Shown: one piece after another, positions 8,240 through 62,946 of the stretch
Numbering within the stretch: the first letter of the stretch is position 1
Layout: each line of letters opens with the position of its first letter
DNA from: a virus
Length of the DNA stretch: 64,000 nucleotides
IMG/VR virus record: IMGVR_UViG_3300042691_040495
Location: 1-64,000 of that record
Strand: one strand, 5' to 3'
Position numbers and translations under genes: made by a program
The notes under the pieces: model-generated
What the model was told of the DNA's origin: nothing
The model's database searches: none
The model's input: only the letters and a program-made list of their open reading frames with translations

Positions 8240-9813
8240 AGTTTATGAATAATAAATTTATCAGTAAAAATATTATCTAATCCAGAATTATCTAACATAT
8301 AAATTGCGTCTTTATATGTATTTATGAGTGGTTTTCCATTAACATTAAATGACGTATTAAGTAAAACTGCTATACCAGATTGTTTTTCAAATTCTGTTAA
8401 TAGATCATATATGAAAGCATTCTGATCTCTGGTAACAGTTTGTAATCTGGCTGTTCCATCAATGTGAGTAATTGATACTAGTTGATCTTTATATTCTGGT
8501 CTGACTTTAGCATAGTAGCTCATAAATCTACTTTCTCCTTCAAACTCAAAATACTTATTAGCATCTTCTAGTTTAACTATTGGGGCAAATGGTCTGAACC
8601 ACTCCCTCTTTTTTACCTTATCATTTAAAATATCTTTCATATTAGGAATAGAGGGATTACATAAAATGCTTCTATTACCCAATGCTCTAGGTCCATGCTC
8701 AGAATTACCCTGTATCAAACCAACTATATTACCATTAGTTAATAGTTTCGCAGCTTTTTCGTGGCTGTATTTTGAAGAATGTCTGATTTCTATTATTTCA
8801 TAAAGATTATAAGGATCTAAAACTGGCAATCCACCATATGTTACATCAACTTGATCTCTCGGTTTCTCATGATCTAGCAACATTCCAAGAGCTAATCCAC
8901 AATCATTAGAATTTGGTGCAACAAATGTTGGCCTATTAAATAGTTCTTTAACTTTGGTATTACATACGACATTAAGAGCGCATCCACCAGTTAAACATAT
9001 TGGCATATCTGGATATTCATTAACAACTGGAGTTATTAATTCAAAAAATACTTCTTCAAATGCTGCCTGAGACGTAGCAGCTATATCTAGAGCTATTTGA
9101 CCATCTAATCTATTATCTGTTGTAAAAATAACTCCAATATTAGATCCTACTATAGTATTAATTTTAGATAGGTAATCTCCACCATCAGGTTTGCTATAGT
9201 AATATTCTTTAAAATATGGTAGCCATTCACTATTAGTTTTACCATATCCACATAATCCCATAAGTTTTCCAGAGTATACCAGATTGCCCATTCCTAATTC
9301 TGATTCAAATTTTATAGGAGATAAAAAATGACCAAAAGACATATATGCAAATCCAAAATCAATTTCAACACGTTTAATATTTTTTACACTATTTTCTCTA
9401 GTAGCATGAAATATATTAAAGAATCCGTCGCTACCACCACCATCATAACTAATAACCAAAGACTCTGGAAAAGGAGACTGATAAAATGTACCAGCAGCAT
9501 GAGCATGGTGATGCAAACAAGGTACTCTTTCTTTTGCATTTATAAATTTCTCATAATGTAAATACTCATCCCCATATACTACATCGGTATTGGAGTATAT
9601 TACAGTATCAAAATTTAAATCTATGTTAAAATGAGTACTAATATAATTTAACATTTCTTGCAGAATAAATTTATTATGATGACATAATAGATATTGAGTT
9701 AATCCATAATTTTTTCTATTAATAAATCTTTCTATTTCAATTACTCTATAGTTAGAACCATCTCTAAAAGCTATTCCACCATTATGGGATCCGTATATAG
9801 CAATATTATTCAT
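8236..9813 (-). CDS. O-carbamoyltransferase (NodU/CmcH/TobZ family)
   Basis: HHHAHAA, DGGG, GKLMGL, GGCALN, GPRALGNRS, RPFAP, HIDGTARLQTV, NTSFN. Confidence 0.95.
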   Translation of the reverse strand: MNNIAIYGSHNGGIAFRDGSNYRVIEIERFINRKNYGLTQYLLCHHNKFILQEMLNYISTHFNIDLNFDTVIYSNTDVVYGDEYLHYEKFINAKERVPCLHHHAHAAGTFYQSPFPESLVISYDGGGSDGFFNIFHATRENSVKNIKRVEIDFGFAYMSFGHFLSPIKFESELGMGNLVYSGKLMGLCGYGKTNSEWLPYFKEYYYSKPDGGDYLSKINTIVGSNIGVIFTTDNRLDGQIALDIAATSQAAFEEVFFELITPVVNEYPDMPICLTGGCALNVVCNTKVKELFNRPTFVAPNSNDCGLALGMLLDHEKPRDQVDVTYGGLPVLDPYNLYEIIEIRHSSKYSHEKAAKLLTNGNIVGLIQGNSEHGPRALGNRSILCNPSIPNMKDILNDKVKKREWFRPFAPIVKLEDANKYFEFEGESRFMSYYAKVRPEYKDQLVSITHIDGTARLQTVTRDQNAFIYDLLTEFEKQSGIAVLLNTSFNVNGKPLINTYKDAIYMLDNSGLDNIFTDKFIIHKL

Positions 9814-10513
9814 TTGTATTGGGTACTAATAGCCCATCTCCACGCATTTCTAAAATATTAATATGTTTATAATTGTATTTATTAGAATAGTCATCAATAA
9901 TAGTTTGAATAAACTCTGCAGTATGACCACCAGCAGAATAATTAATTTCAAATTCAATAATAGGTTTATATAATAGATTATCCATTATAGATAGTATATC
10001 TTTTAAAATTAATGTATCACTATTTTCAGTATCAATTTTAATAAAACTTTTTTTATTTAAAAGTCCATTATTGTTAAAAAAATCTGATATCTTTGCGGTT
10101 TCTCTCTGATTCGTATTTTTATAATGGTTCGTTTTTGATAATCCAAAATTAATATATTCATTATTGTTTAATATTTGTTCGTCAATATATTCATCATCAA
10201 AATTAATATTGATAATTTTATCTAAAATAATATCATTATATACTGATACAGTATGGTCATTTTCATATTTATTCTTCATATAAGAATATAGTTTTGTATT
10301 ACCTTCAAACAAATAAGCTTTTTCAATATTAAGAATTGATTTTTCTTTAATTAAATCATAGACCTTACCAACATTGGCACCGATATCTATATAAATAGTA
10401 GGATCGTGTTTATAATACGATTGTAAAATATTAGATATGCCACATAAAAATGGCTCAACGTGCTGTGAGCAATGATGATCATCCCATCGTTTTATATAAT
10501 AATTATAATCCAT
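9806..10513 (-). CDS. FkbM-family methyltransferase
   Basis: IDIGANVG, LFEG, IKIDTE. Confidence 0.85.
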   Translation of the reverse strand: MDYNYYIKRWDDHHCSQHVEPFLCGISNILQSYYKHDPTIYIDIGANVGKVYDLIKEKSILNIEKAYLFEGNTKLYSYMKNKYENDHTVSVYNDIILDKIININFDDEYIDEQILNNNEYINFGLSKTNHYKNTNQRETAKISDFFNNNGLLNKKSFIKIDTENSDTLILKDILSIMDNLLYKPIIEFEINYSAGGHTAEFIQTIIDDYSNKYNYKHINILEMRGDGLLVPNTNE

Positions 10514-10516
10514 GAT

Positions 10517-11809
10517 TTATAAATTACCAGTAATTGGTTCGGCCCAACCGTTCTTTATGCTATGGGGCCAAACTATCCAGCTAGTAGGTAGTTTTTCAGT
10601 TTGGAACTCTCTCCATACTTTACAATACCCGTCTGGATCATTCTTCATAGAGAGTATCTCATTAGCATCTGCATCTTGTCTATACATATCCTCTCCTTTT
10701 TCATCCTTAAAAGCAACAGCCCAAAAATCATAATCGTTTTCTGGAACTTGATCATATTGAATATCTATACAGTGTTTAAATATTCTTAATAATTTACTAT
10801 CAAATTCTTCATCTGATAAGTTTGTTGTTTCTGGATCTGGTGGAGGTTTTCGGTCAATAACTCTTTTTTGAATTGCTCTTTTACCAAAACATAGTCCTGA
10901 ATATTTTTCATAATCTCTTAATGTTCTTATTGATCCAAATCCGTATCTTCCAAAATCTATATCTCTTTTCTCTCCATCCATTTCAAATAATTTACGATTT
11001 TTTAAATGACAATAATTATTTCTCTTAGCCCAATCTTTGTCATCATCCCATTGTTTTGTTCGCCCTTTTCTGGTATATTCATGCCAACATATAACTTTAT
11101 TAGGATGAAATAAATCATATCCCCATGTATATGCTCTAACAGCTATGCTTATTTCCTCTCCATGAAAATAATATTCTGGATCATGAGGGACTTCTATGCT
11201 AAATTCTCCTAGAGTAAAAGCAAAATGAGCACTATAAAATCTTGCAGGCAGAGGTTTTGTGATATCATCATGAGGTTCATATGATGCAGGAAGGAAGAAC
11301 ACGGCGCCTTCTGGTATGAATCTATCAAAATTCATTTTCCATGGTTCGTTTATTCTTGCTCCGGGATCATTGTCAGGGTCGAAACTGGGAATATATCCTG
11401 TCAGTAATGGTTTTTTATATCCATCTTTTTGTAAGTCTTTTAACATATTAATTAATTCAGTATCCCAATGCGGGACAAATCTATGATGACTATCTAATTG
11501 TAAAGTATATTTTTCACCATCATATAATGATTGAACACTATTTCTGGCCCAACAAACTCCTTTACTATCCAAATAGTTAACATCTAGTATTCTGAATCTT
11601 GGGTCATTTTTAAATTCTTCTAAATTGTCCCACTCATCTTTGTCACAATGCTGCCAGCATATTCCGAATCTTAGTAGTTCTGGATGGTCAGCTTTATCTA
11701 TCATGTCTTTAAGAGTTGGCAATAATTGAGGATCTCTGTAAGAAGCTATTTGAACAAAAATTGTATTCTTACGATCCTTCTTAATTTTCTCTTCTTTCTT
11801 GCGCTTCAT
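10517..11809 (-). CDS. GlcNAc-transferase, Gnt1/GT60-like (protein O-glycosylation family)
   Basis: IFVQIASYRD, GVCWAR, LQLDSHHRF, FHGEE. Confidence 0.85.
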   Translation of the reverse strand: MKRKKEEKIKKDRKNTIFVQIASYRDPQLLPTLKDMIDKADHPELLRFGICWQHCDKDEWDNLEEFKNDPRFRILDVNYLDSKGVCWARNSVQSLYDGEKYTLQLDSHHRFVPHWDTELINMLKDLQKDGYKKPLLTGYIPSFDPDNDPGARINEPWKMNFDRFIPEGAVFFLPASYEPHDDITKPLPARFYSAHFAFTLGEFSIEVPHDPEYYFHGEEISIAVRAYTWGYDLFHPNKVICWHEYTRKGRTKQWDDDKDWAKRNNYCHLKNRKLFEMDGEKRDIDFGRYGFGSIRTLRDYEKYSGLCFGKRAIQKRVIDRKPPPDPETTNLSDEEFDSKLLRIFKHCIDIQYDQVPENDYDFWAVAFKDEKGEDMYRQDADANEILSMKNDPDGYCKVWREFQTEKLPTSWIVWPHSIKNGWAEPITGNL

Positions 11810-13433
11810 AAAAATGTACTCTGTTATGGGTTATAGGACTAGATAATAGTATTGCTGAACGAACTTTTTCTTCAACTGTTAAAGTATATATATGACTCAT
11901 CCATGTTTGTTCAAATGGATTCTCCCATTTTGTATCTAAAAACAGCTTTTGATTACCTTCTTGATCTATAATATGAGGCCAATTACAATAGTAAACTTCC
12001 CCTTCAGCATAAGGATTACCATTATAAGATTTTATATGATGAAATTTTGTTGATGGTTTTTTATTGCCTCTTCCAAAAAATTTCATTCTTTTTTCTGATG
12101 GAACATTATGCCAACTCCATTGATCAGAATTATTGCCATAAAATTCACTAAAACTTAATTTCAAAAAATCATAATATTCATTATCCATTATTCTTATGGC
12201 AACATTAAAAAGACCATCTACTTTTTTATTAAAACCAAACGAGCATCTATTATCAAAATCTAGAAGCATATCATCTTCAAAAAAGAACATGTATTTTGAA
12301 CCAGTATCTGCAAAATGTTCAGCTGCTATTTGTCTTGAACGACAAATTCCCTTGTTGCCGTGTCTAATTTCTTCAAAGTTATATTTTTTGGTTATAACAT
12401 CGTATTTTTCAAACAGTTCTGGTTTCGTTGTATTATTAAGCAAAATTTTTCTTGTTTTATTTAAGAAATTATTGTCATATTTTTCAAAACTATCCAAAAC
12501 CATTTGTAGTTGTTCTGGAGAATTAAATGCATTAATATACAAAAGTATATCATTATTGGTATGTTTTTTCCTTTTGGGTTTACCAACATCCTGAACTATG
12601 GTTATGTTATTTTTTACTTTTTCGAAGAATGTAGACAGCAATCCATTATCTTCTATCATTTCAAATTTAAATACATCAGTATCTAAATATGTCATTATTG
12701 TAAAAATGCTTTCTTCTGTTCCCATTAAGCCAGAATTAAGAGTATCATTTAGTAATGAATAATATAATTCATTTGCTTTTGATATATAATCTATATGACC
12801 ACCAAAAAATCCACCTCTAGCAACCCTGTTAACACTGTCGCTATGACAGTACTCTTTCATTTTATCTATTTTGAATCCGTGTATCTCTGAGTTGGTTTCA
12901 TATGGAAAACATATAAATAAAAATTTATCAACAATACTTTCTATTTTTTCTATTACATTATCATGACTAAAATATCCAGGATGCACAGTATTTGCTATCC
13001 CTCCATCCAACCAAAATAAATATTCTGTATTAAATGGGTTAAAACATTTTGCATTATGCAGAAAGAACATCTTGCTCATAACCATAGGGTTGTAAAGTTC
13101 CATTCTGCACTGTGTGCTATCTTTTAACCATCCTACTTGATTTTGCCATTCATCATTAAGTCTTATTTTCTGTACATTATCAAAAAATGGGAAGAAAGAC
13201 CCTTTAAATTGGTCTTTAGAATGATGGTAAACCACAGTATTGGATTTTTCTCTGTGTTCCCAAACTATATGTTCGTGTTCTTTGTCTATAAATACTATTA
13301 AGGGTATATCTTTTAGGGATTTGAGCAGTACAATAAAGTTATCAACATAATGCTGAAACGATCTTCCCCATCCTTCTGATAGATTATCCCTACCAAGATC
13401 CCATATACCGGTCACAATAGTAGAGTTTATCAT
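11781..13433 (-). CDS. HtrL/YibB-like glycosyltransferase fused to a second GT-A domain
   Basis: TIVTGIWDLGR, SKMFFL, FWLDGG, GGFFGG, GTEES; second domain FFEDD. Likely start MINST at 13433. Confidence 0.75.
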   Translation of the reverse strand: MINSTIVTGIWDLGRDNLSEGWGRSFQHYVDNFIVLLKSLKDIPLIVFIDKEHEHIVWEHREKSNTVVYHHSKDQFKGSFFPFFDNVQKIRLNDEWQNQVGWLKDSTQCRMELYNPMVMSKMFFLHNAKCFNPFNTEYLFWLDGGIANTVHPGYFSHDNVIEKIESIVDKFLFICFPYETNSEIHGFKIDKMKEYCHSDSVNRVARGGFFGGHIDYISKANELYYSLLNDTLNSGLMGTEESIFTIMTYLDTDVFKFEMIEDNGLLSTFFEKVKNNITIVQDVGKPKRKKHTNNDILLYINAFNSPEQLQMVLDSFEKYDNNFLNKTRKILLNNTTKPELFEKYDVITKKYNFEEIRHGNKGICRSRQIAAEHFADTGSKYMFFFEDDMLLDFDNRCSFGFNKKVDGLFNVAIRIMDNEYYDFLKLSFSEFYGNNSDQWSWHNVPSEKRMKFFGRGNKKPSTKFHHIKSYNGNPYAEGEVYYCNWPHIIDQEGNQKLFLDTKWENPFEQTWMSHIYTLTVEEKVRSAILLSSPITHNRVHFYEAQERREN

Positions 13434-13528
13434 AGTTAAGTATGTATTATAGTAATATCCGCCCGCTCTGCATAATATATAATCAGAAATTAGCCTATCG
13501 TCAAGACAAAAAAATCTTATCAAAGTGG

Positions 13529-39794: not shown

Positions 39795-42540
39795 ACTAGC
39801 AATAGTCTTATATTTATATTATACAGATTTATGGCCAGAGTTTAAACACTTATTAAGTCGTTTAGATCTGAACTATACTTTGTATTTAGGATTATGTAAA
39901 GATAATGATAATTCCGAAATCTTAAATGATCTTAACTCTTTAAAATGCCAAACTAAAATTAGTTATCATGAAAATTATGGAGCAGATATAGCTCCTTTTC
40001 TATCTCAACTTCATGATATAAAAGAACCTCTTTTCATTAAAATCCATGGTAAAAAAACAAACATAGGGACTCATAACCATGTGAATTGGAGATCCATTTT
40101 ATTAAATGATTTGATTGGAGGATCTGATATAGTAGAATCAAATATTTTAGCACTTGAAGATAAATCAGTCGGTATGATATCCCCAAGACCTCTTTTATGG
40201 TCCAACTTAGAGGGATCCAATTCTTCCAAGATACAGCATCTATGTTCGGAACTAAATATAGATTACAATTCAGTGAAAGATGGATATTTTGTTGCTGGAT
40301 CTATGTTTATGTCTAGAACAAAAATTTTTAAAAGTATTTTTACAAAAAATAAAATAATAAAAATATTAGAACTACTTAGTGCAGAAACCAATAAAGTACA
40401 AGATATAGTCAATGGAACATATTCGCATTCTCTTGAAAGAATTTTTGGCTATATTATTAAATTCAAAAATTTTACTATTAATTTTTTTAATCATAATTAT
40501 ATTTTAATTAAAAATACCGATACACAAAAAATATTTCATGGAATAAAATTATATACTAATTTTATGTATTTGTTAGAAGATATGAATGTTTATGGAAAAA
40601 TATTAACAGAAACAGATGATACTAAACTAATTCAATGGTATCACTTGAATAGTCCAATAGATCAATTATATCATTTATCAGAAGATAACTATTTTATTTC
40701 TAATGGTAGTAATTCTAGTCTTCTAGATGATTCTAAAATTAATTTTCGATTTGAAACCCCTAGTAGCATATCGATATCTATTCTTTTATTTTATCCAGAA
40801 GAGTTGTCTTTAAAATCTATCAATAATATATGTTCTATGTTATTTAATAAATGTCATGAATTAAATATACTAAAAATAATACTAAATATTAGAAATAATT
40901 CATTAAATTATAATTCAGAAATTATTAAAAATAATATTCTAAATTTACAAGAATACTATGGTAATTTAAATAAATTAGATATACAAATTAATTATTTTGA
41001 AAATTTTAATTATGGATATGGCCGTGGTCACAATGAAAATTTTAACATAGACTCGGATGCTGAATACTTTTTTGTACTAAATGACGATATATTTTTTCCT
41101 AATCTTGATTGGATGAATAGATGCTTTAAAGAGTTTCATGAACAACAGGATTTGGCAATTATCGGATCAGAACAGTCTCCTCAATTTTTAGATAATTTAG
41201 CCAATGGAATACTGAGGCCTATAATCGAAACGAATAATCCAGATTATTCTGAGGGATCGATACTTCTGATAAAATCGGATATTTTTAAACAGATTAATGG
41301 ATTTGATACTTCTTTAGAATATTGTTATTATGAAGACGTAGATTTGTGTCTTAGGGTTAAGCAGCTTGGGTATAAGATTAAAAACATAACTATTAAACAT
41401 CAGCATTTTAGATCAAGTAGTTCATCCAAACTTCCGATTATAGCAAGAGAATCTATAAGTGAATTAAATAGAGCAAAATTTTTATCTAAATGGGGTGGAT
41501 TTATACAAGGGAAAAAAGAAAATTTATATAATAACATATTAATAGATATAGATTTTGATGGATTTGGTGATATTGTTGACTGTTATTATCCTATTAAACA
41601 ATTATTATTGAATAATATAAATAATAATATATATATGTATATTCCATCTAATTTATTACATTTATATTTTTCTTTAATCTTTTTTCATCCAAATATAACA
41701 TTTATAAAAAAAGAAGAAATTAATAATATAAATTATGATAGTATATATTCAACAAAAAATTTAAACCTATCTCCACCATATCATACTATGGATATTATTG
41801 CTTCTCAATTTGGAGTGGTTGACTTTGACACTGATCCAACAGCCGTATGCTCTTATTATAAAAATAAATTAAAAAATTCAACAATAATAAAACCAGATAA
41901 AAAATATATTGTTATCCATTTTGACTCTCAAAGAGAGGGTTTTGAGTCGAGGATGCCCAATCAAGAAATATTGATTTCTATAACTCAAAAACTCAGTGAA
42001 CACTATAAATTTATTATTTTAGGTAAACATTTAAAGATACCAAATATTGAATTTGAAAATCATATATCAATTTTAAAAGATAATAATATAATCTATGATT
42101 ATAGAGATTCAGGATCAATAGAGGATATGTTTATGCTAATTTCGGGATGCTTTATGTTTTTAGGAGTTGACTCGGGGCCGAGTCATATAGCTCAATTATT
42201 AAATATTCCAAGCTATATTATATATGGTCCTATCAATCCTGCAACTAAAATATACAGATATTATAATTCTGGTTGTTATTATAATTTAAATCACGAGTCT
42301 GGTTCTGGAACCTATCACAGATGCTTAAGACCATCGTATCATTATGATATGAGAAGAGATGAAAACTGCATAAAAGAAATAGATAGTTCTTTTTTGACGA
42401 CAGATATTGAAAAATTTATATCAAATAATTTTGTCTTTAATTGGATACCTATTTTTGATTCTCTAAGAAGAAATCAGAGAGAATCGATACTACTACAAAT
42501 GCATAACCCATTATATAAAAATAAAATTTTGTTAAATTAA
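39769..42540 (+). CDS. Tri-modular glycosyltransferase: RgpF-like + GT2 + GT9
   Basis: NYGADIAPF/KIHGKK/AGSMF/HSLER; LNDD/YYEDVD; DGFGD/GVDSGPSHIA. The frame is open from 39757; the start is uncertain (ATA 39769 or TTG 39880). Confidence 0.82.
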   Translation: MTNYNHQNKLAIVLYLYYTDLWPEFKHLLSRLDLNYTLYLGLCKDNDNSEILNDLNSLKCQTKISYHENYGADIAPFLSQLHDIKEPLFIKIHGKKTNIGTHNHVNWRSILLNDLIGGSDIVESNILALEDKSVGMISPRPLLWSNLEGSNSSKIQHLCSELNIDYNSVKDGYFVAGSMFMSRTKIFKSIFTKNKIIKILELLSAETNKVQDIVNGTYSHSLERIFGYIIKFKNFTINFFNHNYILIKNTDTQKIFHGIKLYTNFMYLLEDMNVYGKILTETDDTKLIQWYHLNSPIDQLYHLSEDNYFISNGSNSSLLDDSKINFRFETPSSISISILLFYPEELSLKSINNICSMLFNKCHELNILKIILNIRNNSLNYNSEIIKNNILNLQEYYGNLNKLDIQINYFENFNYGYGRGHNENFNIDSDAEYFFVLNDDIFFPNLDWMNRCFKEFHEQQDLAIIGSEQSPQFLDNLANGILRPIIETNNPDYSEGSILLIKSDIFKQINGFDTSLEYCYYEDVDLCLRVKQLGYKIKNITIKHQHFRSSSSSKLPIIARESISELNRAKFLSKWGGFIQGKKENLYNNILIDIDFDGFGDIVDCYYPIKQLLLNNINNNIYMYIPSNLLHLYFSLIFFHPNITFIKKEEINNINYDSIYSTKNLNLSPPYHTMDIIASQFGVVDFDTDPTAVCSYYKNKLKNSTIIKPDKKYIVIHFDSQREGFESRMPNQEILISITQKLSEHYKFIILGKHLKIPNIEFENHISILKDNNIIYDYRDSGSIEDMFMLISGCFMFLGVDSGPSHIAQLLNIPSYIIYGPINPATKIYRYYNSGCYYNLNHESGSGTYHRCLRPSYHYDMRRDENCIKEIDSSFLTTDIEKFISNNFVFNWIPIFDSLRRNQRESILLQMHNPLYKNKILLN

Positions 42541-43941: not shown

Positions 43942-46131
43942 ATGTCGGCACTTCAAGAACTTCAGAATTATACATTTGTTAGTAAGTATGCTCGTTGGAT
44001 AGAAGATAAAAATCGTAGAGAAACTTGGAAAGAAGCTGTTGATCGCGTAAAAAGTATGATGCATATCCAGTATCCGCATATTAAAGAAGATATTGATTGG
44101 GCATATGATATGATGTATAAGAAGAAAGTTCTAGGTAGCCAAAGAGCGCTTCAATTTGGTGGAGAGCCTATTCTAAAAAGACATGCAAAAATATACAATT
44201 GCACTAGTTCTTATTGTGATCGTTTACGATTTTTTCAAGAGTGTTTTTGGCTATTACTCTGCGGCAGCGGAACAGGATTTAGTGTCCAAAAGCACCATGT
44301 TGCTAAACTACCAACATTAGAACATGATATTCCTGATAATAATGAAGGTATAAAATATGTAATTGAAGATAGTATCGAAGGGTGGGCAGACGCTCTTGGT
44401 GTTCTTCTCAGTTCATACTTTAGTAAACCAATTGAAGAATTCAAGATGTACAAAAATACTTATGTAGTTTTTGATTATTCAAATATTAGACCAAAGGGAT
44501 CCTCATTAGCTAGTGGAGTAGGTAAAGCTCCCGGATTTGAGCCACTACAAAATGGACTAGAAAAAATTAGAATTCTGCTGGATCGTTGTATTTCTAATGG
44601 CCAGAAAAAACTACGACCAATTGATGCATATGATATTGTGATGCACAGTAGTGATGCTGTTTTAAGTGGCGGAGTTAGACGCAGTGCTAGTCTCGCCTTG
44701 TTCAGTCACGATGATGAGGAAATGGCAAAAGCAAAAACCGGTAACTGGTATATGGACAATCCTCAAAGAGCAAGAAGCAATAATTCAGCACTTCTGCTCA
44801 AAAATGAAACGACATTTGAAGAATTCCAAGAATTGATGGAGAGCGTTAAAGAATTTGGAGAACCAGGATTTATTTGGAGTGATTCAACGGAGATGACTTT
44901 TAATCCTTGTGTAGAAGTAGGAATGTGGCCAGTAGATGAAGAAACTGGTAAGAGCGGATGGCAAGGATGCAATCTATCAACTATTAATTGTTCATCTATC
45001 GAAGATGAAGATGATTTTTATGAAAGATGCAAAGCCGCTGCTATTATTGGTACTCTACAAGCAGGATTTACTAAACTAGACTATCTTGGAGAGACTAGCT
45101 GTCGAATCTTTGAAAGAGAAGCTCTATTAGGAGTCTCATTAACCGGAACAATGGAAAAACATGATTTGGTACTGTCAGAAAAAGTACTACGCAATGGTGC
45201 AAAAATTGCTGTAGAAACTAACAAAGAAATTTCTAAAAAAATAGGCATTAATCAGGCTGCCAGAGTAACGTGTTTAAAACCAGAGGGAACAAGTAGTAGT
45301 ATGCTAGGAACCAGCTCTGGTATCCATCCTCATCATGCCAAAAGATATATTCGTCATGTGCAAGCTAATGTACTAGAAGCTCCGTATCAGCATTTCAAGA
45401 AAGTTAATCCTCAAGCATGTGTTAAATCCTCATGGTCGGCTAATAACACGGATGAGGTTATAAAATTTCCAATTGAGGTACCAGATGGTGCAAAATTAAA
45501 AAATCAATTGCCCGCTTTAGAAATGTTATCAGTTGTTAAAGATACTCAGAAAAACTGGGTTCAAAGTGGTAAAAATAGATCTTTATGCACACAAGATTAT
45601 CTTAGTCATAATGTAAGCAATACTGTAACTGTTAAACCAGATGAGTGGGATGCTGTAACAAAGTATATTTATGACAATAGAAAATATTTTGCCGGAATCA
45701 GCTTGATTCCTCAAAGCGGAGATAAGGACTATCCGCAGGCCCCATTCACAACAGTTTACACCAGTAGAGAAATTGTTAAAGAATACGGAGACGCTGCTCT
45801 ATGGTGTTCAGGATTAATTGAATTAGGATTAAATGCTTTCAATAATAATTTATGGGCAGCATGTGATTATGTCAGTTTAAATCAAGCTAAAGATAATGAT
45901 AGTCAAGAAAAGTTATTATTTATTACAAAAATGAAAAATTTTGCTGGAAAATATTTTGATAGTGATATTAGACGTTTAACATATTGCATGAAAGATGTTT
46001 ATAATTGGAAAATCTATTGTGATCTTTACAACAGCTTTAAGAAAGTAGACTACACACAACTTTTAGAGAACGAAGACAATACTGCGGGCATAGAAGAAAT
46101 TAGTTGTGCTGGTGGAGCGTGTTTATTATAG
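43942..46131 (+). CDS. nrdJ: Class II (AdoCbl-dependent) ribonucleotide reductase
   Basis: RETW, YNC, GGVRRSA, NPCVE, CNLSTIN, KPEGT, C-terminal CAGGAC; no beta subunit nearby. Confidence 0.9.
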   Translation: MSALQELQNYTFVSKYARWIEDKNRRETWKEAVDRVKSMMHIQYPHIKEDIDWAYDMMYKKKVLGSQRALQFGGEPILKRHAKIYNCTSSYCDRLRFFQECFWLLLCGSGTGFSVQKHHVAKLPTLEHDIPDNNEGIKYVIEDSIEGWADALGVLLSSYFSKPIEEFKMYKNTYVVFDYSNIRPKGSSLASGVGKAPGFEPLQNGLEKIRILLDRCISNGQKKLRPIDAYDIVMHSSDAVLSGGVRRSASLALFSHDDEEMAKAKTGNWYMDNPQRARSNNSALLLKNETTFEEFQELMESVKEFGEPGFIWSDSTEMTFNPCVEVGMWPVDEETGKSGWQGCNLSTINCSSIEDEDDFYERCKAAAIIGTLQAGFTKLDYLGETSCRIFEREALLGVSLTGTMEKHDLVLSEKVLRNGAKIAVETNKEISKKIGINQAARVTCLKPEGTSSSMLGTSSGIHPHHAKRYIRHVQANVLEAPYQHFKKVNPQACVKSSWSANNTDEVIKFPIEVPDGAKLKNQLPALEMLSVVKDTQKNWVQSGKNRSLCTQDYLSHNVSNTVTVKPDEWDAVTKYIYDNRKYFAGISLIPQSGDKDYPQAPFTTVYTSREIVKEYGDAALWCSGLIELGLNAFNNNLWAACDYVSLNQAKDNDSQEKLLFITKMKNFAGKYFDSDIRRLTYCMKDVYNWKIYCDLYNSFKKVDYTQLLENEDNTAGIEEISCAGGACLL

Positions 46132-46212: not shown

Positions 46213-46944
46213 TTGAGAAAAACTAATAAAAACTCAAAAAAGAAAATTAAAGTTATTGATGCAACAAATAATTTGGAACCAAAAGGAGCCGCTTATAGAA
46301 ATCGATTAAAACCAAGAACCGACAATCAAAAAGAATACATAAGGACGATTGCAGAAAATACTATTACATTTTGTCAAGGTTTAGCTGGTAGTGGTAAAAC
46401 ACACATTGCTATTGGAATGGCTCTTGAATATCTTTTAGATGAAAAAGTTAAAAAGATTATTATCACAAGACCAATATTAGAGGCGGGAGAAAAAATGGGA
46501 TATCTCCCAGGTTCCGCAGAAGAGAAGTTACATCCTTATTTATTACCTATACTAGATGAAATCGGGCATTTTATAAGTTCGGCCCACTATGCTTCTCTTA
46601 GACTGAATAATAAGGTTGAGGTTGTGCCATTAGGACTTATGAGAGGTCGTAATTTTCATAACGCTTTTATTGTTGCGGATGAGTGTCAAAACGCTTCATA
46701 TGAACAATTAAAAATGTTAATAACAAGAACCGGGCAGTCTAGTAAAATGGTCTTAACTGGTGATGTTGCTCAGTCTGACTTAAGCAGACACCTACAAGGT
46801 GGTTTTAGTGATATGATATCGGCCCTTAATGGAGTTGAAAGTATAGGATATTCTAAATTAGAAGCCTCAGATATTGTAAGAAATCCAATTATCTCTAAAA
46901 TCTTATATAGACTTGATGATTATGAGCAGCAAAGCCGAAAATAG
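46213..46944 (+). CDS. phoH: PhoH-family ATPase
   Basis: GLAGSGKT, GYLPG, MRGR, DECQN, GDVAQSD. Confidence 0.96.
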   Translation: MRKTNKNSKKKIKVIDATNNLEPKGAAYRNRLKPRTDNQKEYIRTIAENTITFCQGLAGSGKTHIAIGMALEYLLDEKVKKIIITRPILEAGEKMGYLPGSAEEKLHPYLLPILDEIGHFISSAHYASLRLNNKVEVVPLGLMRGRNFHNAFIVADECQNASYEQLKMLITRTGQSSKMVLTGDVAQSDLSRHLQGGFSDMISALNGVESIGYSKLEASDIVRNPIISKILYRLDDYEQQSRK

Positions 46945-55372: not shown

Positions 55373-56409
55373 TTACATATTTTAGAAGCTCCTCATATAA
55401 TACGCATAATATGTGTGAACAGCAGTATTTTTCAGAATACGTTCTAGGGTGGCGAGGGTTGAGCGGACAAAAGGCAGACAAAGGAACAATCTGTCACAAA
55501 GTTCTTGAAATTTTGGCAGTTATGAAAAAAGCAGAGCAGGATGGCCAGAGTACTATTAATGATGATTTGATTGGGGAATTAGATATTAATAATTATAATC
55601 TGGATATTATAATAGAAAAAGTATACTCATATTATACCCTTAATGCACAACATCATAAGTGGTCACCAAAAGACCATAAAGACTGTAAAAGCTGGGTTTA
55701 TAAAGCGATAGAATTTAATAATGGGATGTTTGATCCTAGGAATAGGAATATTTTATGTCCAGAACAGCATTTTGATTTTGAGATTAAAAAACCATGGGCC
55801 AAATATAATTACGATATTGGTAATGGTGAAAAATTAGAAGGTAATTTAGCATTAAAAGGCACCATAGATCTTATAACACTTGTTAATGACTCTACAATTG
55901 AAATAATAGATTGGAAAACCGGTCGTAGGCTAGATTGGGCTACAGGAGAAGAAAAAACCCAAGAAAAATTAGAAAAAGATCCACAATTAAAAATATACCA
56001 TTATGCTATTAAACATTTATATCCTCATATTGAAAATATAATTTTTTCTATCTATTTCATCAATGATGGTGGTCCGTTTTCTATTTGTTTCCATGATTCA
56101 GATTTAAAATCGACCGAAGATATGTTAAGACAAAAATTTGAAGCAATTAAAAGTACAAAAAAACCTAGATTAAATAAAAGCTGGATGTGTAGTAAATTGT
56201 GTCACTTTGGCAAAACAACATTTGAGGGAACTCATATTCAACCAATAGAAGAATATAGGGACGGTCAGGTATGTAGAGTTGGTCAAACGATGACAAAGTG
56301 CGAGCAAATAAAACATGATCTTGATCTTTATGGTATCGACACTACAATGGGTTTGTACAAGAACAAGAATCATTCCTTTGGAAGTTACAAAGCTCCTGGA
56401 TCACTATGA
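55366..56409 (+). CDS. PD-(D/E)XK exonuclease (AddB/Cas4-like)
   Basis: GTICH, EQHF, GTIDL, IIDWKTG, QLKIY; Cys residues at both ends. Start may be ATT 55366; first ATG is 55411. Confidence 0.88.
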   Translation: MIITYFRSSSYNTHNMCEQQYFSEYVLGWRGLSGQKADKGTICHKVLEILAVMKKAEQDGQSTINDDLIGELDINNYNLDIIIEKVYSYYTLNAQHHKWSPKDHKDCKSWVYKAIEFNNGMFDPRNRNILCPEQHFDFEIKKPWAKYNYDIGNGEKLEGNLALKGTIDLITLVNDSTIEIIDWKTGRRLDWATGEEKTQEKLEKDPQLKIYHYAIKHLYPHIENIIFSIYFINDGGPFSICFHDSDLKSTEDMLRQKFEAIKSTKKPRLNKSWMCSKLCHFGKTTFEGTHIQPIEEYRDGQVCRVGQTMTKCEQIKHDLDLYGIDTTMGLYKNKNHSFGSYKAPGSL

Positions 56410-58274
56410 CAAAAACATATTCTGTGCTTCATGCTCACTCCCACTATAGTCTTTTGGATGGGATTAGTAAGCCTTATCAAATAGCCGATAGGTGCTATAA
56501 TACCGGTATTAAGACCTGTGCTATCACTGATCACGGGACAATATCAGGATGCGTACAATTTTATCAAGCCTTAAAAGCCAAAAAAATAAAACCCATACTG
56601 GGTTGCGAATTATATATCTCTAATAGAGACTCACATATTAAAGAAAAAGACAACAATAATCTGAGTCACTTTCTGGTTCTTGCTAAAAATTTAGCTGGTT
56701 GGAAAACATTGGTTAAAATTATATCAGAAACAAACAGAGTTGAAAATTTCTATCATAAGCCAAGAATTAGTTTCGACAGACTTGCACCAATGTTAGATGG
56801 TAATATCATCGGATTTTGCGGCCATCTTGGTTCTACACTTTCTGATATAGTAGAAGAAAATAGTTCAGACTATATTAGCAAATCTTTGTCATTCATTTCG
56901 CACATGAAAGAAATCTTTGGCGAAAACAATTTCTTTCTAGAAGCTCAGTTGATGGATCAAGAATTTAATCCCAAACAAAAAGACATGACCGATATTATGA
57001 GATCTTTGGGAATAAAAAGTCAAACAAAAGTTATAGCAACTCCAGATGCTCATTATTGTGAAAAGAAAGATGCGATTGATCAAAGAATTCTATTGTGCAA
57101 CAATTTAAAAACAACGCTTATTGACATAAATAAAAAACTGCTATCCAATGAGGACGTGCCAATGAGTTGTTTTTTCAAATCAGACAATTTTCATATACCA
57201 GATCCAGAAGAGATGATATCTTGGCACACAGCAGAAGAAATAGAAAATACACAATATATTGACTCATTATGTGAAGAATATTCTATATTAAGCAAACCGC
57301 TACTTCCTGCTTTTAAATGTCCTAATGGCGACAATCCAGACGAATATTTAAGACAACTATGCAGAAATGGTTGGAGACAAAAGGTTATAAATCATATTCC
57401 AGAATCAGAGCATGAAAAATATGCTGACAGAATTAAATTTGAGTTGAGCATTTTACAGGGTGCTGGTTTATCCAGTTACTTTTTAATAGTTCAAGATATA
57501 GTAAACTATGTAAAGGAGAGCGGATGGCTTCCTGGTCCCGGCAGAGGAAGTGCTGCTGGATGCTTAGTATCGTACCTTATCGGAATAACAGATATTAATC
57601 CAATAAAATATAATTTGCTATTTGAAAGATTCTATAATGAAGGTAGAAATACAGCAGATCATATATCTATGCCAGATATCGATGTTGACGTTCCTATTAA
57701 CAAAAGAGAAAATATTATCGAATACATAAAAAATAAATATGGTTCTGATAAAGTATCTCAGATGATAACATTTAATACAATGAAAGGTCGAGGAGCATTA
57801 AAAGAAGTACTAAGAGTTTATGACAATATTAGTTTTGAAGAAATGAATAGAATAACTAAATTTATACCAGATGAAGCAAAAATTGCAGACGAACTTCAAG
57901 AGATGAAAGAAGATACAGGTGAGGCATCTATTATTAGATGGGCTTTAGAAAACAATGTTGACAAACTCAAAGAATGGTGCTATATTAGTGAGGATGGCTC
58001 CCTGTCCGGTCCTCTTGCTAAGAGATTTGAGCAGGCAATCAGGCTTGAGGGAACTAAATCTAATCAATCAAAACATGCGGCTGGTGTAGTTATTAGTAGT
58101 GAAAATCTAAGTTCTGTATGTCCTATGGTATATGATTCAAAAAACAAACAATCAATAGCAGGGATGGAAATGCAAGACTTAGAAGGTTTGGGGTTAATCA
58201 AATTTGATATTCTTGGTGTTGCTATGCTTGATAAAATAATGACTATATCAGACATTCTATCTAAAGGAGAATAA
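56406..58274 (+). CDS. dnaE: DNA polymerase III alpha, N-terminal part (PHP + palm + thumb)
   Basis: HAHSHYSLLDG, TDHG, DAHY, GRGSAAG, FERF, PDIDVD, HAAG, KFDILG. Confidence 0.96.
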   Translation: MTKTYSVLHAHSHYSLLDGISKPYQIADRCYNTGIKTCAITDHGTISGCVQFYQALKAKKIKPILGCELYISNRDSHIKEKDNNNLSHFLVLAKNLAGWKTLVKIISETNRVENFYHKPRISFDRLAPMLDGNIIGFCGHLGSTLSDIVEENSSDYISKSLSFISHMKEIFGENNFFLEAQLMDQEFNPKQKDMTDIMRSLGIKSQTKVIATPDAHYCEKKDAIDQRILLCNNLKTTLIDINKKLLSNEDVPMSCFFKSDNFHIPDPEEMISWHTAEEIENTQYIDSLCEEYSILSKPLLPAFKCPNGDNPDEYLRQLCRNGWRQKVINHIPESEHEKYADRIKFELSILQGAGLSSYFLIVQDIVNYVKESGWLPGPGRGSAAGCLVSYLIGITDINPIKYNLLFERFYNEGRNTADHISMPDIDVDVPINKRENIIEYIKNKYGSDKVSQMITFNTMKGRGALKEVLRVYDNISFEEMNRITKFIPDEAKIADELQEMKEDTGEASIIRWALENNVDKLKEWCYISEDGSLSGPLAKRFEQAIRLEGTKSNQSKHAAGVVISSENLSSVCPMVYDSKNKQSIAGMEMQDLEGLGLIKFDILGVAMLDKIMTISDILSKGE

Positions 58275-58275
58275 A

Positions 58276-58455
58276 ATGAAAAAACAGTTTCATGAATTGG
58301 CTGTTGGTCAAAAGTTTACAGTTAATGGCGTAGAATATATTAAAACAGACGAGGTTAGAATTAGTTGTTGCAAAAGTATCAATTGCTATGCTTCAGCCGA
58401 TGCTAATCAAAAAGGACATTTTCCAGGAAATACAGAAGTAACAGTAGATGGCTAA
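58276..58455 (+). CDS. 59-aa Cys-containing protein (not in ORF track)
   Basis: AAGGAG RBS; MKKQFHELAVGQKF...ISCCKSINC...TVDG; fills the gap between dnaE-N and the exonuclease. Confidence 0.7.
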   Translation: MKKQFHELAVGQKFTVNGVEYIKTDEVRISCCKSINCYASADANQKGHFPGNTEVTVDG

Positions 58456-59146
58456 TATACAAAAAATTTGCGTTTTTGATTTAGAAACGGACGGAGCAAA
58501 CCCTGACCTCTGCAGTCCAGTTCAGATTGCAGCGGTCATGGTTGATCCGATGAAGTTAGAAATCATAGAAGATTCAGAGTTTAATATAACGGTTAAACCT
58601 CTTATATTAGAAGAAAAGCCCGACTATTCATACGCCGACTCTGACGTACTAGACTTTCATGCTAAAGTTAGAGGAAGTACAAAAGATAAAATATTAGAGT
58701 CTTGGAAAGAATACCAAAAACAAGAACATGGTTGGAATATGTTTATCTCATACCTAGAGATGTATCATATTCGATCAAATAGTAAAAAATCTTGTTTTAG
58801 TGCTCCAATAGCAGCAGGATATAACATTAATAGATTTGATCTCAGAATAATAGAACGTCTAAGTCAAAAGTATAACAATCTGAACAAAGAAGGACGCTCT
58901 TCATTATTTTATCCAAGAGATGTAATCGATATTATGAATCTTGTATTCTACTGGTTCGAAGGCAATAATGAACTGAAAAATTATACATTAGATAATCTAA
59001 GAGACTATCTTGGTATAGATAAAGAGGGGTCTCACGATGCTCTTAAGGATGTTAAGGATACAGCTAATATATTAATTAGATTTCTTAAACTACATAGAAA
59101 TCTATCAAATAAAATTAAATTTAAATCATCATTTATTGGAACATAA
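58448..59146 (+). CDS. dnaQ: DEDDh 3'-5' exonuclease (DnaQ/epsilon-like)
   Basis: VFDLETDG, GYNINRFD, SHDALKD. Confidence 0.92.
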   Translation: MANIQKICVFDLETDGANPDLCSPVQIAAVMVDPMKLEIIEDSEFNITVKPLILEEKPDYSYADSDVLDFHAKVRGSTKDKILESWKEYQKQEHGWNMFISYLEMYHIRSNSKKSCFSAPIAAGYNINRFDLRIIERLSQKYNNLNKEGRSSLFYPRDVIDIMNLVFYWFEGNNELKNYTLDNLRDYLGIDKEGSHDALKDVKDTANILIRFLKLHRNLSNKIKFKSSFIGT

Positions 59147-59152
59147 TTTATA

Positions 59153-60778
59153 ATGGGTCAGGTTTTTACATTTGAGTGTGGTTGCAAATTCCCTGTCATA
59201 GATAATAATGAAAAATTTCCTAAAATAGATTTTTCACCTAAGCTTTCTAACATTAGTCTAACTTGTCAAAAAACTTGGGATTTAATATCTCTTGGAAATA
59301 CCAAAGGGTGTTTTCAGCTTGAGTCCAGACTTGGACAAACAATGGCCAGGAAATTGAAGCCTCAAAATATAGAACAACTATCTGGTCTTATTAGCATTCT
59401 TAGACCAGGATGCTTAGAGGCTATGAGAGATGGTAAAAGCGTATCTAATCATTATATTGATAAAAAAAATGGATTAGCGTCCATAGATTATTTCCATCCT
59501 GCTCTTGAGCCAATCTTAAAAGATACATATTCTGAGATGATATATCAAGAACAAGCCATGTCAATAGCCAAAGAATTAGCTGGGTTTAATCTGAAAGAGG
59601 CAGATGATCTTAGAAAAGCTATCGGCAAAAAACAAGCTGATAAGATGGCTAAGGTCAAAGAAAAATTTATTAATGGTTCAAAAAACAAAGGACTAATAAA
59701 CGAACAAGAAGCTGAACAAATATTCGAATGGATTGAGAAAAGTCAAAGATATTTGTTTAATGCGAGTCATTCCATCAGCTATGCCATGAATGCATATTTA
59801 TCAGCATATGCTAAAGCTCATTTTCCACGAGTATTTTTTGCATCTTATTTAAGGTTTGCCAAAGACAAAATTGATCCTCAACAGGAAATAAAAGAACTTG
59901 TGAGAAATGCTATTGAAATGGATATAGATATCAGAATACCTGATTTTAGAAATCTTAATGAGCTATTTATACTGAAAGATAAACAAATATTTTTTGGATT
60001 AACAGATATTAAAGGTGTTGGACAATCGGTTTATAATAAGATAATAAATCTGACAAAAGATCAAGACGTACAATCTATGTCATGGCCACAAATACTATCA
60101 ATTGTATTACTTAATATTAATTCGATAGCAAGCAAAGCATTAATTAGTTCTGGTGCATTTGATTATTTTAAGAAAAACAGATCAGAATTATTATTTGAAT
60201 ATGAGATATGTAGTGGATTAACAAAAAAAGAATTGACATCTTTTAACGACTATGTTTCATTAAAGAGCGATGCTGGTGTTCTGGAAATTATGAGACATAT
60301 TTATGATAATACTAAATTAATAAAAGGAAGAAAAGAAATAATAAATAATTGCATACAGTCATTGATGCGTCCGCCGTATTCTTTGGTCGATAAAATTGAA
60401 TGGTTGTCCGATTCAGAAAATAGTCTACTAGGAGTAGGAATTACGTGCTCGAAATTAGATGTTTATGATGTTAGTTCAGCAAACTGTAATTGTAAAACTT
60501 TCAAGACTTCCTTGCTGAAAGAAAACATTATTCTAGTAGGAGAAATATCTAATATAAATGTGACAAAAACAAAAAATGGTAAAAACCCAGGATTAGAAAT
60601 GGCTTTTGTGACTATAGAAGATCAATATGGAACTCTGGATACTGTTGTATTTTTTCCAGAAATATTTTCACAATATAGATCATATTTATTTATAGGCAGC
60701 ATACTGGTATTTGCTGGTAATCGCAGCAAAGCAAAGGATGGTCTAATTGTGGAAAAGTGTTTTAATCCTGTTTCTTGA
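59153..60778 (+). CDS. dnaE: DNA polymerase III alpha, C-terminal part (fingers + HhH + OB)
   Basis: FQLES, RPG, YQEQ, ADDLRKAIGKK, FNASHS, IKGVG, MAFVTIED. Confidence 0.95.
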   Translation: MGQVFTFECGCKFPVIDNNEKFPKIDFSPKLSNISLTCQKTWDLISLGNTKGCFQLESRLGQTMARKLKPQNIEQLSGLISILRPGCLEAMRDGKSVSNHYIDKKNGLASIDYFHPALEPILKDTYSEMIYQEQAMSIAKELAGFNLKEADDLRKAIGKKQADKMAKVKEKFINGSKNKGLINEQEAEQIFEWIEKSQRYLFNASHSISYAMNAYLSAYAKAHFPRVFFASYLRFAKDKIDPQQEIKELVRNAIEMDIDIRIPDFRNLNELFILKDKQIFFGLTDIKGVGQSVYNKIINLTKDQDVQSMSWPQILSIVLLNINSIASKALISSGAFDYFKKNRSELLFEYEICSGLTKKELTSFNDYVSLKSDAGVLEIMRHIYDNTKLIKGRKEIINNCIQSLMRPPYSLVDKIEWLSDSENSLLGVGITCSKLDVYDVSSANCNCKTFKTSLLKENIILVGEISNINVTKTKNGKNPGLEMAFVTIEDQYGTLDTVVFFPEIFSQYRSYLFIGSILVFAGNRSKAKDGLIVEKCFNPVS

Positions 60779-60802
60779 CACGGTGGTGGCCCAGTTTATA
60801 AT
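60775..60802 (+). promoter_or_regulatory. Sigma70-type promoter for ssb
   Basis: TTGACA-N16-TATAAT, followed by a TAGGAG RBS. Confidence 0.85.
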
Positions 60803-60843
60803 ATGGTAGTTGCGAGTTTTCTTTTTTACATAGGAGTTGATTT

Positions 60844-61215
60844 ATGAATATTACATTGCTAAAGGGTAATCTTGCTAGAGATCCAGAATTACGAAATGTT
60901 AATACTGGCGGAAAGCAAACAGCAGTAGTAAATTTTACTGTTGCAGTATCACGCGAGTATACGAAGGCTAGCGGAGATAAGGATAAGATTACTTCCTTTA
61001 TTAATTGCGAAGCTTGGGATAGCGGAGCCGAAATGATCGCTGAGTCATTCAAGAAGGGCGATCTTGTGATGGTAGAAGGATCACTAAGAAATGATAGCTG
61101 GGAAAAGGATGGAGTTAAGCATAGTAGTCTTAAGGTAAGAGTTAATAACTTTTCTAAGATCACAAGACTATCTAAGAATTCCAAGCAGGATGCCCAGGAA
61201 CCAGTAGCGTTCTGA
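60844..61215 (+). CDS. ssb: Single-stranded DNA-binding protein
   Basis: GNLARDPELR, KGDLVMVEGSLR..SW. Confidence 0.96.
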   Translation: MNITLLKGNLARDPELRNVNTGGKQTAVVNFTVAVSREYTKASGDKDKITSFINCEAWDSGAEMIAESFKKGDLVMVEGSLRNDSWEKDGVKHSSLKVRVNNFSKITRLSKNSKQDAQEPVAF

Positions 61216-61240
61216 TAAATATAGGATAACCCTTTTAAAG

Positions 61241-61274
61241 ATATGGGGGTGCTAATAACACCCCTATATTTTTA
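61241..61274 (+). terminator. Rho-independent terminator after ssb
   Basis: atatgggggtg-ctaataa-cacccctatat hairpin plus T run. Confidence 0.8.
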
Positions 61275-61281
61275 TCTTCTT

Positions 61282-62946
61282 ATGATGAAACAAAAACTTA
61301 AAATCTTGATGTGCTCCGAAGCCAGCTTTATCAATTCTGGTTTTGGAATTTATACTAAAGAACTTCTTAATAGATTATACGATACAAATAAATACGATAT
61401 AGCAGAATTTGCTTCGTATGGTTTTGTTAATGATCCTAGAGATGTTTCCATTAGATGGAAGTATTATGCCAATGCCGTTAAAGATACAGATCCAAGACAC
61501 AAAGAATACACATCACGAGGAGATAACCAGTTCGGAAGATGGCGTTTTGAAAAAGTTCTTTTAGACTTTAAACCAGACGTTGTGATAGATATCAGAGATT
61601 ACTGGATGACCGCCTACCAGAGAATATCCCCTCTGCGTAAATTTTTTCATTGGATATTAATGCCAACTGTAGATTCGTCTCCACAACAAGAAGAATGGAT
61701 TGATACATTTTTAGATGCTGATGCTATTTTCACATATTCTGATTGGGGTGCCGAAGTATTACAGAACCAAGCTTCTGGTAAAATCAACTATATAGATACA
61801 ACATCTCCGGGTGTTGATTGCAATATTTTTAGACCCAAAGATAGAACCTCAATTAGGTCGGCTTTTGGAATAGACCAAGATAGTTTTATTGTTGGATCGG
61901 TTATGAGAAACCAAAAAAGGAAATTAATACCCGAACTTTTTGCATCATTCAGAATTTTGTTAGATAGGCTAGAGGCAGATAACAACAAAGAATTAGCAAA
62001 TAAAATATTCTTATATCTACACACCAGTTATCCAGATATGGGTTGGGACATACCCGAAATACTTAGACAAAATAGATTAACCAACAAAGTACTATTCACA
62101 TATTTATGTAAAAACTGTGGAAGAGTTTCCTGTTCAAAATTTCAAGGACCAAGCAAAGTTTGTGAACGATGCTTATCTAAATCTAATAATTTTCCATCTG
62201 TTACTGAGGGTGTCAGTTCAGAAGATTTAAGCAATATATATAATATATTTGACTTATATGTACAATATTCTATTTGCGAAGGATTCGGGATGCCACAAGT
62301 CGAAGCTGGAGCGTGTGGTGTTCCTATTGCCACTGTTAATTATAGTGCTATGTGTGATATCGTAGATAAACTGAATGCTTATCCAATAAAAATTAAATCA
62401 GCATTTAAAGAGTTAGAAACAAAAGCCATCAGAGTATATCCAGATAATGAAGATTTAGCAGAATATATCCTGAATATAGCTTCTCAACCCAAACCGGTTC
62501 TTGATAAAAAGCGATTTGAAACCCATGAATTGACACACAAATATTATGATTGGAATAATACTTTTAAGAAATGGGAAAAATATTTAGATAGTTTGGATTC
62601 ATCTGGATACAGATCAAATTGGAATACTGGAGACTATTTACAGCCATTAACTGGCAATACTGATAATATTACTAGTAATAATTTTGATAATGTGCTGCAT
62701 ATGTTAAATAATAATATGAAAAATGCATCAATGATTGGTAGTCAAAAAATATTAGAATTACTAAATAGCGCTGATTATGGTTTTGTTCAAAATGGACCAA
62801 CTAGTATTATGGGATATAGTTTTAATGATCTTAAAGAATACATCAGAACATCCATAGATAATAATAATCAAGCAAAACAAGCAAAAGATAACAATGTTAA
62901 ATTTGATGAAGATTTTATCTTATATTCAAGACTGAAGAATAAATAA
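61282..62946 (+). CDS. GT4-family glycosyltransferase with Cys4 insert
   Basis: RNQKRK, EGFGMPQVE, CKNC...CERC; likely start MMKQKLK. Confidence 0.9.
   Translation: MMKQKLKILMCSEASFINSGFGIYTKELLNRLYDTNKYDIAEFASYGFVNDPRDVSIRWKYYANAVKDTDPRHKEYTSRGDNQFGRWRFEKVLLDFKPDVVIDIRDYWMTAYQRISPLRKFFHWILMPTVDSSPQQEEWIDTFLDADAIFTYSDWGAEVLQNQASGKINYIDTTSPGVDCNIFRPKDRTSIRSAFGIDQDSFIVGSVMRNQKRKLIPELFASFRILLDRLEADNNKELANKIFLYLHTSYPDMGWDIPEILRQNRLTNKVLFTYLCKNCGRVSCSKFQGPSKVCERCLSKSNNFPSVTEGVSSEDLSNIYNIFDLYVQYSICEGFGMPQVEAGACGVPIATVNYSAMCDIVDKLNAYPIKIKSAFKELETKAIRVYPDNEDLAEYILNIASQPKPVLDKKRFETHELTHKYYDWNNTFKKWEKYLDSLDSSGYRSNWNTGDYLQPLTGNTDNITSNNFDNVLHMLNNNMKNASMIGSQKILELLNSADYGFVQNGPTSIMGYSFNDLKEYIRTSIDNNNQAKQAKDNNVKFDEDFILYSRLKNK

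Follow-up and report, generated by a model that had tools for sequence, protein, structure and literature searches.

A phage DNA polymerase III alpha encoded by two adjacent intein-free genes that flank genes for a microprotein and a DnaQ-like exonuclease

All bacteria replicate their DNA with C-family polymerases, which have been studied as single catalytic chains. We analyzed IMGVR_UViG_3300042691_040495, a 96.7-kb IMG/VR virus record from an uncultured aquatic phage, estimated to be 70% complete. The first 64 kb of this record (hereafter the window, G+C content ~31%) contain dnaE, the gene for the alpha subunit of DNA polymerase III (Pol III), in two pieces. A first-pass annotation made from the letters alone had described this locus as two dnaE halves separated by a Cys-rich microprotein gene and a DnaQ-type exonuclease gene, and our analysis confirms it (Table 1). 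The first half, dnaE-N, ends with a stop codon at 58272-58274, and the second, dnaE-C, starts with an ATG at 59153. The 0.88-kb gap between them is, as had been claimed, wholly taken up by the microprotein and exonuclease (exo) genes. There is a 1-nucleotide (nt) spacer between dnaE-N and the microprotein gene, the end of the latter overlaps the start of exo by 8 nt (ATGGCTAA), and 6 nt separate the exo stop from the dnaE-C ATG. The Shine-Dalgarno sequence of the microprotein gene lies inside the last codons of dnaE-N, which suggests translational coupling; the corresponding Lys-Gly-Glu (KGE) terminus of the N-half is common among relatives. No terminator-like sites were found between the four genes.

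Table 1. Features of the split dnaE locus in the window and, for other loci, content of the slot between dnaE-N and exo (aa, amino acids; UDG, uracil-DNA glycosylase; ORF, open reading frame)
Feature	Locus	Position	Strand	Description
dnaE-N	window	56406-58274	+	622 aa; PHP, palm, thumb
Shine-Dalgarno AAGGAG	window	58264-58269	+	within final dnaE-N codons (K-G-E); 6 nt before microprotein ATG
Microprotein gene	window	58276-58455	+	59 aa
exo	window	58448-59146	+	232 aa; DEDDh (DnaQ-like) 3'-5' exonuclease
dnaE-C	window	59153-60778	+	541 aa; fingers, HhH, OB
Split-specific head of dnaE-C, F-x-[FY]-[DE]-C-G-C-x-F	window	59153-59218	+	~22 aa; absent from contiguous DnaE (junction alignment, 27 contiguous DnaE)
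Sigma-70 consensus promoter TTGACA-16-TATAAT	window	60775-60802	+	12/12; overlaps dnaE-C stop, upstream of ssb
ssb	window	60844-61215		SSB by Pfam
Slot: CC microprotein	this clade; divergent forms L089, L095, L110			
Slot: 38-aa zinc ribbon	L114, L115	6541-6657 (L114)		
Slot: unrelated 75-82-aa family	L117, L118, L122, L139, L140, L150, L154, L156; also L111, L112, L121			
Slot: family-4-type UDG (PF03167) and 103-110-aa ORF	L090, L091	9908-10456 (L091)		
Slot, extra: 231-aa ORF	L078	7872-8567		between dnaE-N and microprotein; no Pfam match at E 0.01
Slot, extra: 324-aa DUF4379 treble-clef protein	L095	9853-10827		
Slot, extra: Cpn10-like 88-aa ORF	L110	10526-10792		
Slot: empty	L130, L142, L152, L163, L119, L120			

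The two halves display complementary parts of a full-length DnaE. In Pfam searches, the N-half matches PHP (PF02811, residues 8-181) and DNA_pol3_alpha (PF07733, residues 313-604), the latter over its full profile (1-260/260). The C-half matches DNA_pol3_finger (PF17657, residues 30-180) and HHH_6 (PF14579, residues 258-346), both above cut-offs. Its OB match (PF01336, residues 461-531) is weak, with 22.6 bits for a cut-off of 27 bits; an AlphaFold2 (AF2) model of the C-half matches OB folds with Z-scores of 11-12 and a root mean square deviation (rmsd) of ~2 Å over 87-97 residues, and DnaE chains with Z-scores of 14-16. PHROG 405, a full-length DnaE profile of 1190 positions, is covered from 41 to 613 by the N-half and from 622 to 1051 by the C-half, and this complementary coverage points to a clean cut.

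Comparison with solved DnaE proteins defines the break more precisely. The N-half aligns to residues 7-625 of Taq alpha and 5-595 of M. tuberculosis DnaE1, with the alignment ending at N-half residue 608-609. From residues 30-34 on, the C-half aligns to Taq 648-955, E. coli 586-899, and M. tuberculosis from 613, and the structural alignment of its AF2 model begins at model residues 17-24, corresponding to E. coli 574-578 and Taq 637-640. All of DnaE is accounted for across the break. The cut falls within a surface loop (approximately E. coli alpha 570-578/Taq 626-640) directly behind the helix that comes after the third catalytic Asp, and the alignment to solved DnaE, that of E. coli included, bears out its earlier placement at the palm/fingers boundary.

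The position of the break has a direct bearing on the active site. The catalytic Asp residues, in the motifs PDIDVD (D424, D426) and KFDILG (D601), are all on the N-half and are invariant in 48 relatives. The N-half ends 16 residues past the Gly of KFDILG, with a tail of ~13 aa beyond the last residue alignable to solved DnaE. The fingers motifs that bind deoxynucleoside triphosphates (dNTP) are on the C-half and are likewise invariant (G158-K159-K160, and N203/S205/H206 of FN.SH). The active site is therefore divided between two chains. The C-half also has a QxxLF-like motif (RSELLF), of conserved type, between HhH and OB. In sum, the parts of a DnaE-type polymerase are all encoded at the locus, i.e. 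PHP and a palm with three Asp, then fingers, HhH, and OB, except that they are not on one polypeptide. ORFs, Pfam, and PHROG 405 agree that these are two intact genes with the whole Asp triad on the first, as the first-pass annotation had it.

When the N-half is aligned to Taq alpha, all nine PHP metal-ligand positions are found to be filled (H9, H11, D18, H43, E68, H88, H140, D214, and H216; window 56430-57053, N-half residues 9-216), the position of H140 being Cys in Taq. The phage polymerase may thus have a functional PHP site besides the separate DEDDh exonuclease.

The exo product matches RNase_T in Pfam (PF00929, 3.3e-11) and PHROG 192, "DNA polymerase exonuclease subunit" (9e-24); its matches to solved DEDDh exonucleases are distant in sequence. 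The motifs Exo I (DxE), Exo II (D), and Exo III-epsilon (Hx4D) are present, with invariant DEDDh residues D11, E13, D131, H196, and D201. Family and position make it the presumed proofreader. In epsilon, it is a C-terminal segment that binds the PHP domain.

The microprotein belongs to no Pfam or PHROG family. Its AF2 model is an all-beta small barrel of six strands, predicted with high confidence (pLDDT 93.4). The only structural neighbors are generic small barrels, the best being the SH3-like domain of IdeR (Z 5.0, rmsd 2.4 Å over 52 residues), with EF-P domain I, FeoA, CarD, and Tudor matching at Z 3.7-5.0 and KOW at 5.0 or less, and Foldseek E values are 0.1 or worse. An ESM Atlas search returned only unnamed viral clusters. 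These weak matches suggest that the barrel is SH3/KOW/Tudor-like, and Cys31-Cys32 would sit in a hairpin loop. F14, C31, and C32 are invariant in relatives. A profile search of 1.84 billion representatives yielded 112 cluster members, nearly all of them stand-alone proteins of ~60 aa, sharing F14, Cys31-Cys32 (nearly all), and N/A at 36-37. The description of a Cys-rich microprotein with the sequence SCCKSINC holds in part: the Cys pair is invariant, but most family members have Ala in place of the third Cys (of NC). We also scanned a set of 80 loci (L084 and L089-L167). All 24 matches of a family-wide microprotein hidden Markov model (HMM) in these loci fall in the slot directly after the N-half; the rest of the 8-kb flanks gave no match, and neither did the contiguous-DnaE loci.

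The arrangement is highly conserved. A relative of the N-half is encoded by 227 IMG/VR contigs, of which 80, with identities of 60-88%, were fetched. The N/microprotein/exo/C order is kept in 80/80, so that both order and breakpoint proved to be conserved in related phages, and the ORFs of all four genes are intact unless cut off by a contig end, in dozens of samples. A near-length search with the C-half returned >3000 proteins, the best 120 of which are almost all 539-543 aa long. Mean column identity is 73-79% for the N-half, exo, and the C-half, indicating strong purifying selection on all three. Cultured phages gave no match by blastn, and by tblastn all matches are at <30% identity and all are contiguous.

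The split DnaE is the only polymerase detected. PolA, PolB, beta clamp, and delta' were not detected in this record, nor were PolA, PolB, and beta clamp in three relatives rated 100% complete (160, 244, and 238 kb).

Taken together, these findings make it probable that a replicative C-family polymerase is made here as two polypeptides that assemble non-covalently. DnaE-N would supply PHP, palm, thumb, and the catalytic Asp triad, and DnaE-C the dNTP-binding fingers, the HhH duplex-binding domain, the clamp-binding-like motif, and the OB fold. Because the active site would be composite, neither half should polymerize alone. Exo would proofread, and the microprotein would be a lineage-specific accessory of the split enzyme. 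The host beta clamp may be used, because no phage clamp or clamp loader was detected, the RSELLF-type motif being only a lead. With four co-oriented genes at gaps of -8 to +6 nt, the locus is probably co-transcribed and translationally coupled, which would match subunit amounts; the stoichiometry of up to four subunits given in the first-pass annotation is inferred from gene packing only. Two points weigh against this interpretation. The record is just 70% complete, so the sole-polymerase claim leans on the complete relatives, and contiguous DnaE relatives exist, so the split is not required for function.

The role of the microprotein can be read differently, as a theta-like partner of exo that stabilizes the proofreader and is unrelated to the split as such. 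The E. coli Pol III core does contain a small epsilon-binding subunit, and the microprotein gene, always directly before exo in this clade, overlaps its start. However, the modeled microprotein is all-beta whereas theta (HolE) is helical, although a theta-like role would still be possible with another fold. Moreover, the contiguous sister L084 and many split clades have exo without the microprotein, and Cys8 and Cys22 of exo are not tied to microprotein presence. We therefore regard this reading as possible but rather unlikely. C8/C22 had been considered as the partner of the microprotein Cys pair and was rejected; it is enriched in loci with the microprotein, yet also occurs in the microprotein-less L120 and L123 and in the contiguous L084.

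In the docking model of the first-pass annotation, a metal bound jointly by the microprotein Cys and the FECGCKF head of the C-half would keep the halves, or all four chains, in contact. Besides the invariant Cys pair of the microprotein, C9 and C11 of the head are invariant in the C-halves of this clade and co-vary with the likewise invariant C38; with these three Cys, the fourth ligand could be supplied from outside the head. At the C38 column, bacteria and head-less forms have Asp. Nevertheless, seven loci have the head without any microprotein (L091, L114, L116, L119, L120, L123, and L145), two have the microprotein with a head-less C-half (L073 and L125, three frames checked), and the head predates the microprotein on the tree described below. 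Because each occurs without the other, an intermolecular metal bridge is not supported, and we consider the shared docking site improbable. C432 of the C-half was examined as a fourth head ligand and discarded: its frequency is 0.88 in head-bearing forms vs 0.22, but the two are not strictly linked, the position being Ala in the head-bearing L089 and L110 and Cys in several contiguous forms. As modeled by AF2, the head forms three short strands (pLDDT ~78). A self-contained metal or disulfide staple is plausible, if speculative: the CxC head and Cys38 would most likely be a stapled beta element stabilizing the new N terminus or its docking.

That the halves are joined by an unrecognized protein-ligation or RNA-level mechanism is very improbable; this idea rests only on the split-intein DnaE precedent and on inteins elsewhere in the C-halves of some relatives. 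No Hint/intein family matches either half at E 0.01 or better in Pfam, and the extra residues at the junction beyond DnaE, ~13 aa for the N tail and ~17-22 aa for the C head, could not accommodate an intein. The N-half ends in KGE, with no Cys or Ser nucleophile. Rfam finds no match over 56000-61300, introns included, and the gap between the halves is filled by two conserved protein genes. The first-pass annotation was thus right that the junctions have neither intein nor intron. In addition, the frame relation of neighboring genes differs among relatives, which excludes a conserved frameshift or readthrough fusion. Finally, although this is a single metagenome-derived record, a mis-assembly or broken pseudogene is practically negligible given four intact ORFs in 80/80 fetched relatives, strong purifying selection, and a sole polymerase in complete genomes.

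In some relatives, including P0121, P0122, P0141, and P0153, the C-half is 950-1100 aa long and contains an intein (PF14890) with LAGLIDADG (PF14528). Inteins do invade this polymerase, but away from the conserved break site.

A search seeded with contiguous sister DnaEs added more distant loci. The same break site is common to clades at just 40-49% identity, and exo is always directly upstream of the C-half in split loci, but the content of the slot between the N-half and exo varies between clades (Table 1). The 231-aa ORF found in one slot has a Cys-rich middle, HNH-like by eye, and may be a mobile endonuclease visiting the slot. The 75-82-aa family, present in microprotein-less clades, has no Pfam match and shares the motif ...S[IL]C.I..[YH]...YQV...Y....A..KF.E...; it may be an analogous accessory.

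Contiguous sister DnaEs (P0123-P0152, 1118-1157 aa, and L084) are 41-46% identical to the C-half and have the same domain order; unlike the split forms, they are single chains and lack the ~22-25-aa head. Among contiguous sisters, L084 (122.8 kb, 81% complete) is the one represented by a whole record. Its exo homologue is nearby, 2.1 kb downstream from dnaE, and a microprotein was not found in it. Searches for further loci with the sisters P0128 and P0129 returned no viral locus and only split relatives, respectively.

A tree of 67 DnaE sequences was inferred with IQ-TREE (quick, LG+G4), after the halves of split forms had been concatenated. A 58-row clade, with a support of 100 in the SH-like approximate likelihood ratio test (SH-aLRT), contains both split and contiguous forms. 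Within it, the contiguous forms make up two clades, of 7 and 15 rows, that nest among split ones, and the state changes at least three times. The approximately unbiased (AU) test rejects monophyly of the split forms (difference in log-likelihood 280, p ~7e-46), for a group that was defined after the tree had been seen. The nesting and the rejected monophyly suggest re-fusion. One ancient split followed by two re-fusions appears most parsimonious; the alternative would be at least six independent splits in this one loop, with exo captured every time. In the larger contiguous clade, the basal members (P0152, P0133, P0126, and P0136) retain Cys at the C38 column, as expected of a relic left by a head-bearing ancestor. 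Also on this tree, the head is older than the microprotein. We tentatively propose, while giving it somewhat less than even credence, that dnaE was cut in an old, single event at the base of a very large aquatic-phage clade, creating a slot that always holds the proofreader and collects small accessories. The two nested contiguous clades would then be re-fusions, and the CC microprotein a new polymerase accessory tied to the split state.

Other split genes differ from this one in several respects. Cyanobacterial DnaE (Wu et al. 1998; Caspi et al. 2003, as cited in PMC3919608 and PMC2677866) and "fractured" DnaE loci, whose neighboring halves enclose another gene (Dassa et al. 2009, PMC2677866), also have the same protein in two genes. 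Their halves carry split-intein parts and get ligated, however, whereas there is no intein here, and the integration points described for fractured loci all carry inteins. The cyanobacterial halves are moreover at separate loci in these accounts, whereas here they are adjacent, and the fractured type has a free-standing homing endonuclease between the halves where this locus has the microprotein and the DEDDh exonuclease.

Similar in layout are, as far as PMC2677866 describes them, the intein-free split family-B polymerase gp43A/gp43B of T4-related phages (Petrov, Karam and co-workers, cited therein) and the mobE-split NrdA (Edgell and co-workers, cited in Dassa et al. 2009). Like this locus, both have their two cistrons next to each other, one or more ORFs in between, and no intein, and the products are thought to work as non-covalent assemblies. 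From the same account, gp43A/gp43B is family B with a homing endonuclease in the gap, whereas this polymerase is family C with an exonuclease and a variable small gene. Splits of the gp43A/gp43B type appear sporadic there, in contrast to the ancient and very widespread split here. T4-like jumbo phages have a minimal split Pol III alpha module, consisting of an N-terminal nucleotidyltransferase and a C-terminal template-binding protein (Iyer, Aravind et al. 2021, PMC7824862). It is likewise a split phage C-family catalytic module proposed to reconstitute an enzyme, but it is reduced, without PHP, HhH, and OB, and its genes are distant and coexist with a family-B replicase (PMC7824862). In the present phage, the split affects a full-length DnaE architecture, its halves are encoded by adjacent genes, and no other polymerase was found. 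Full-text literature searches returned no description of an intein-free split of full-length DnaE, only split-intein work and the jumbo-phage minimal split Pol III.

That thousands of phage sequences retain a natural version severed between catalytic palm and dNTP-binding fingers would mean that the Pol III active site can be assembled from two proteins. It also marks the break loop as permissive, and thereby as a place where split or conditional forms of Pol III could be engineered. In this system, one coupled unit would encode the polymerase, its proofreader, and small accessory subunits. Should the nesting of contiguous within split forms hold, this would be a rare documented re-fusion of a fractured essential gene.

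The locus is part of a replication module, with RecA, DnaB, Toprim primase, dNMP kinase, and a PD-(D/E)XK nuclease encoded upstream and SSB downstream. The promoter upstream of ssb (Table 1) places a predicted operon boundary at the dnaE-C stop, and a strong terminator-like hairpin follows ssb at 61236-61274. Elsewhere in the window are genes for a ribonucleotide reductase (43942-46131) and PhoH (46213-46944). A Nol-like carbamoyltransferase and several glycosyltransferases are encoded at 8236-13523 (-), 39880-42540 (+), and 61243-62946 (+), as assessed by PHROGs 1601, 24687, and 2170, with weak Glyco_transf_9 and Glyco_transf_7C matches; the phage is unusually rich in sugar-modification genes. 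Outside the window, the minus strand of 69990-84265 contains two giant adjoining ORFs of 2622 and 2143 aa, followed on the same strand by ORFs of 675, 981, 1270, and 902 aa.

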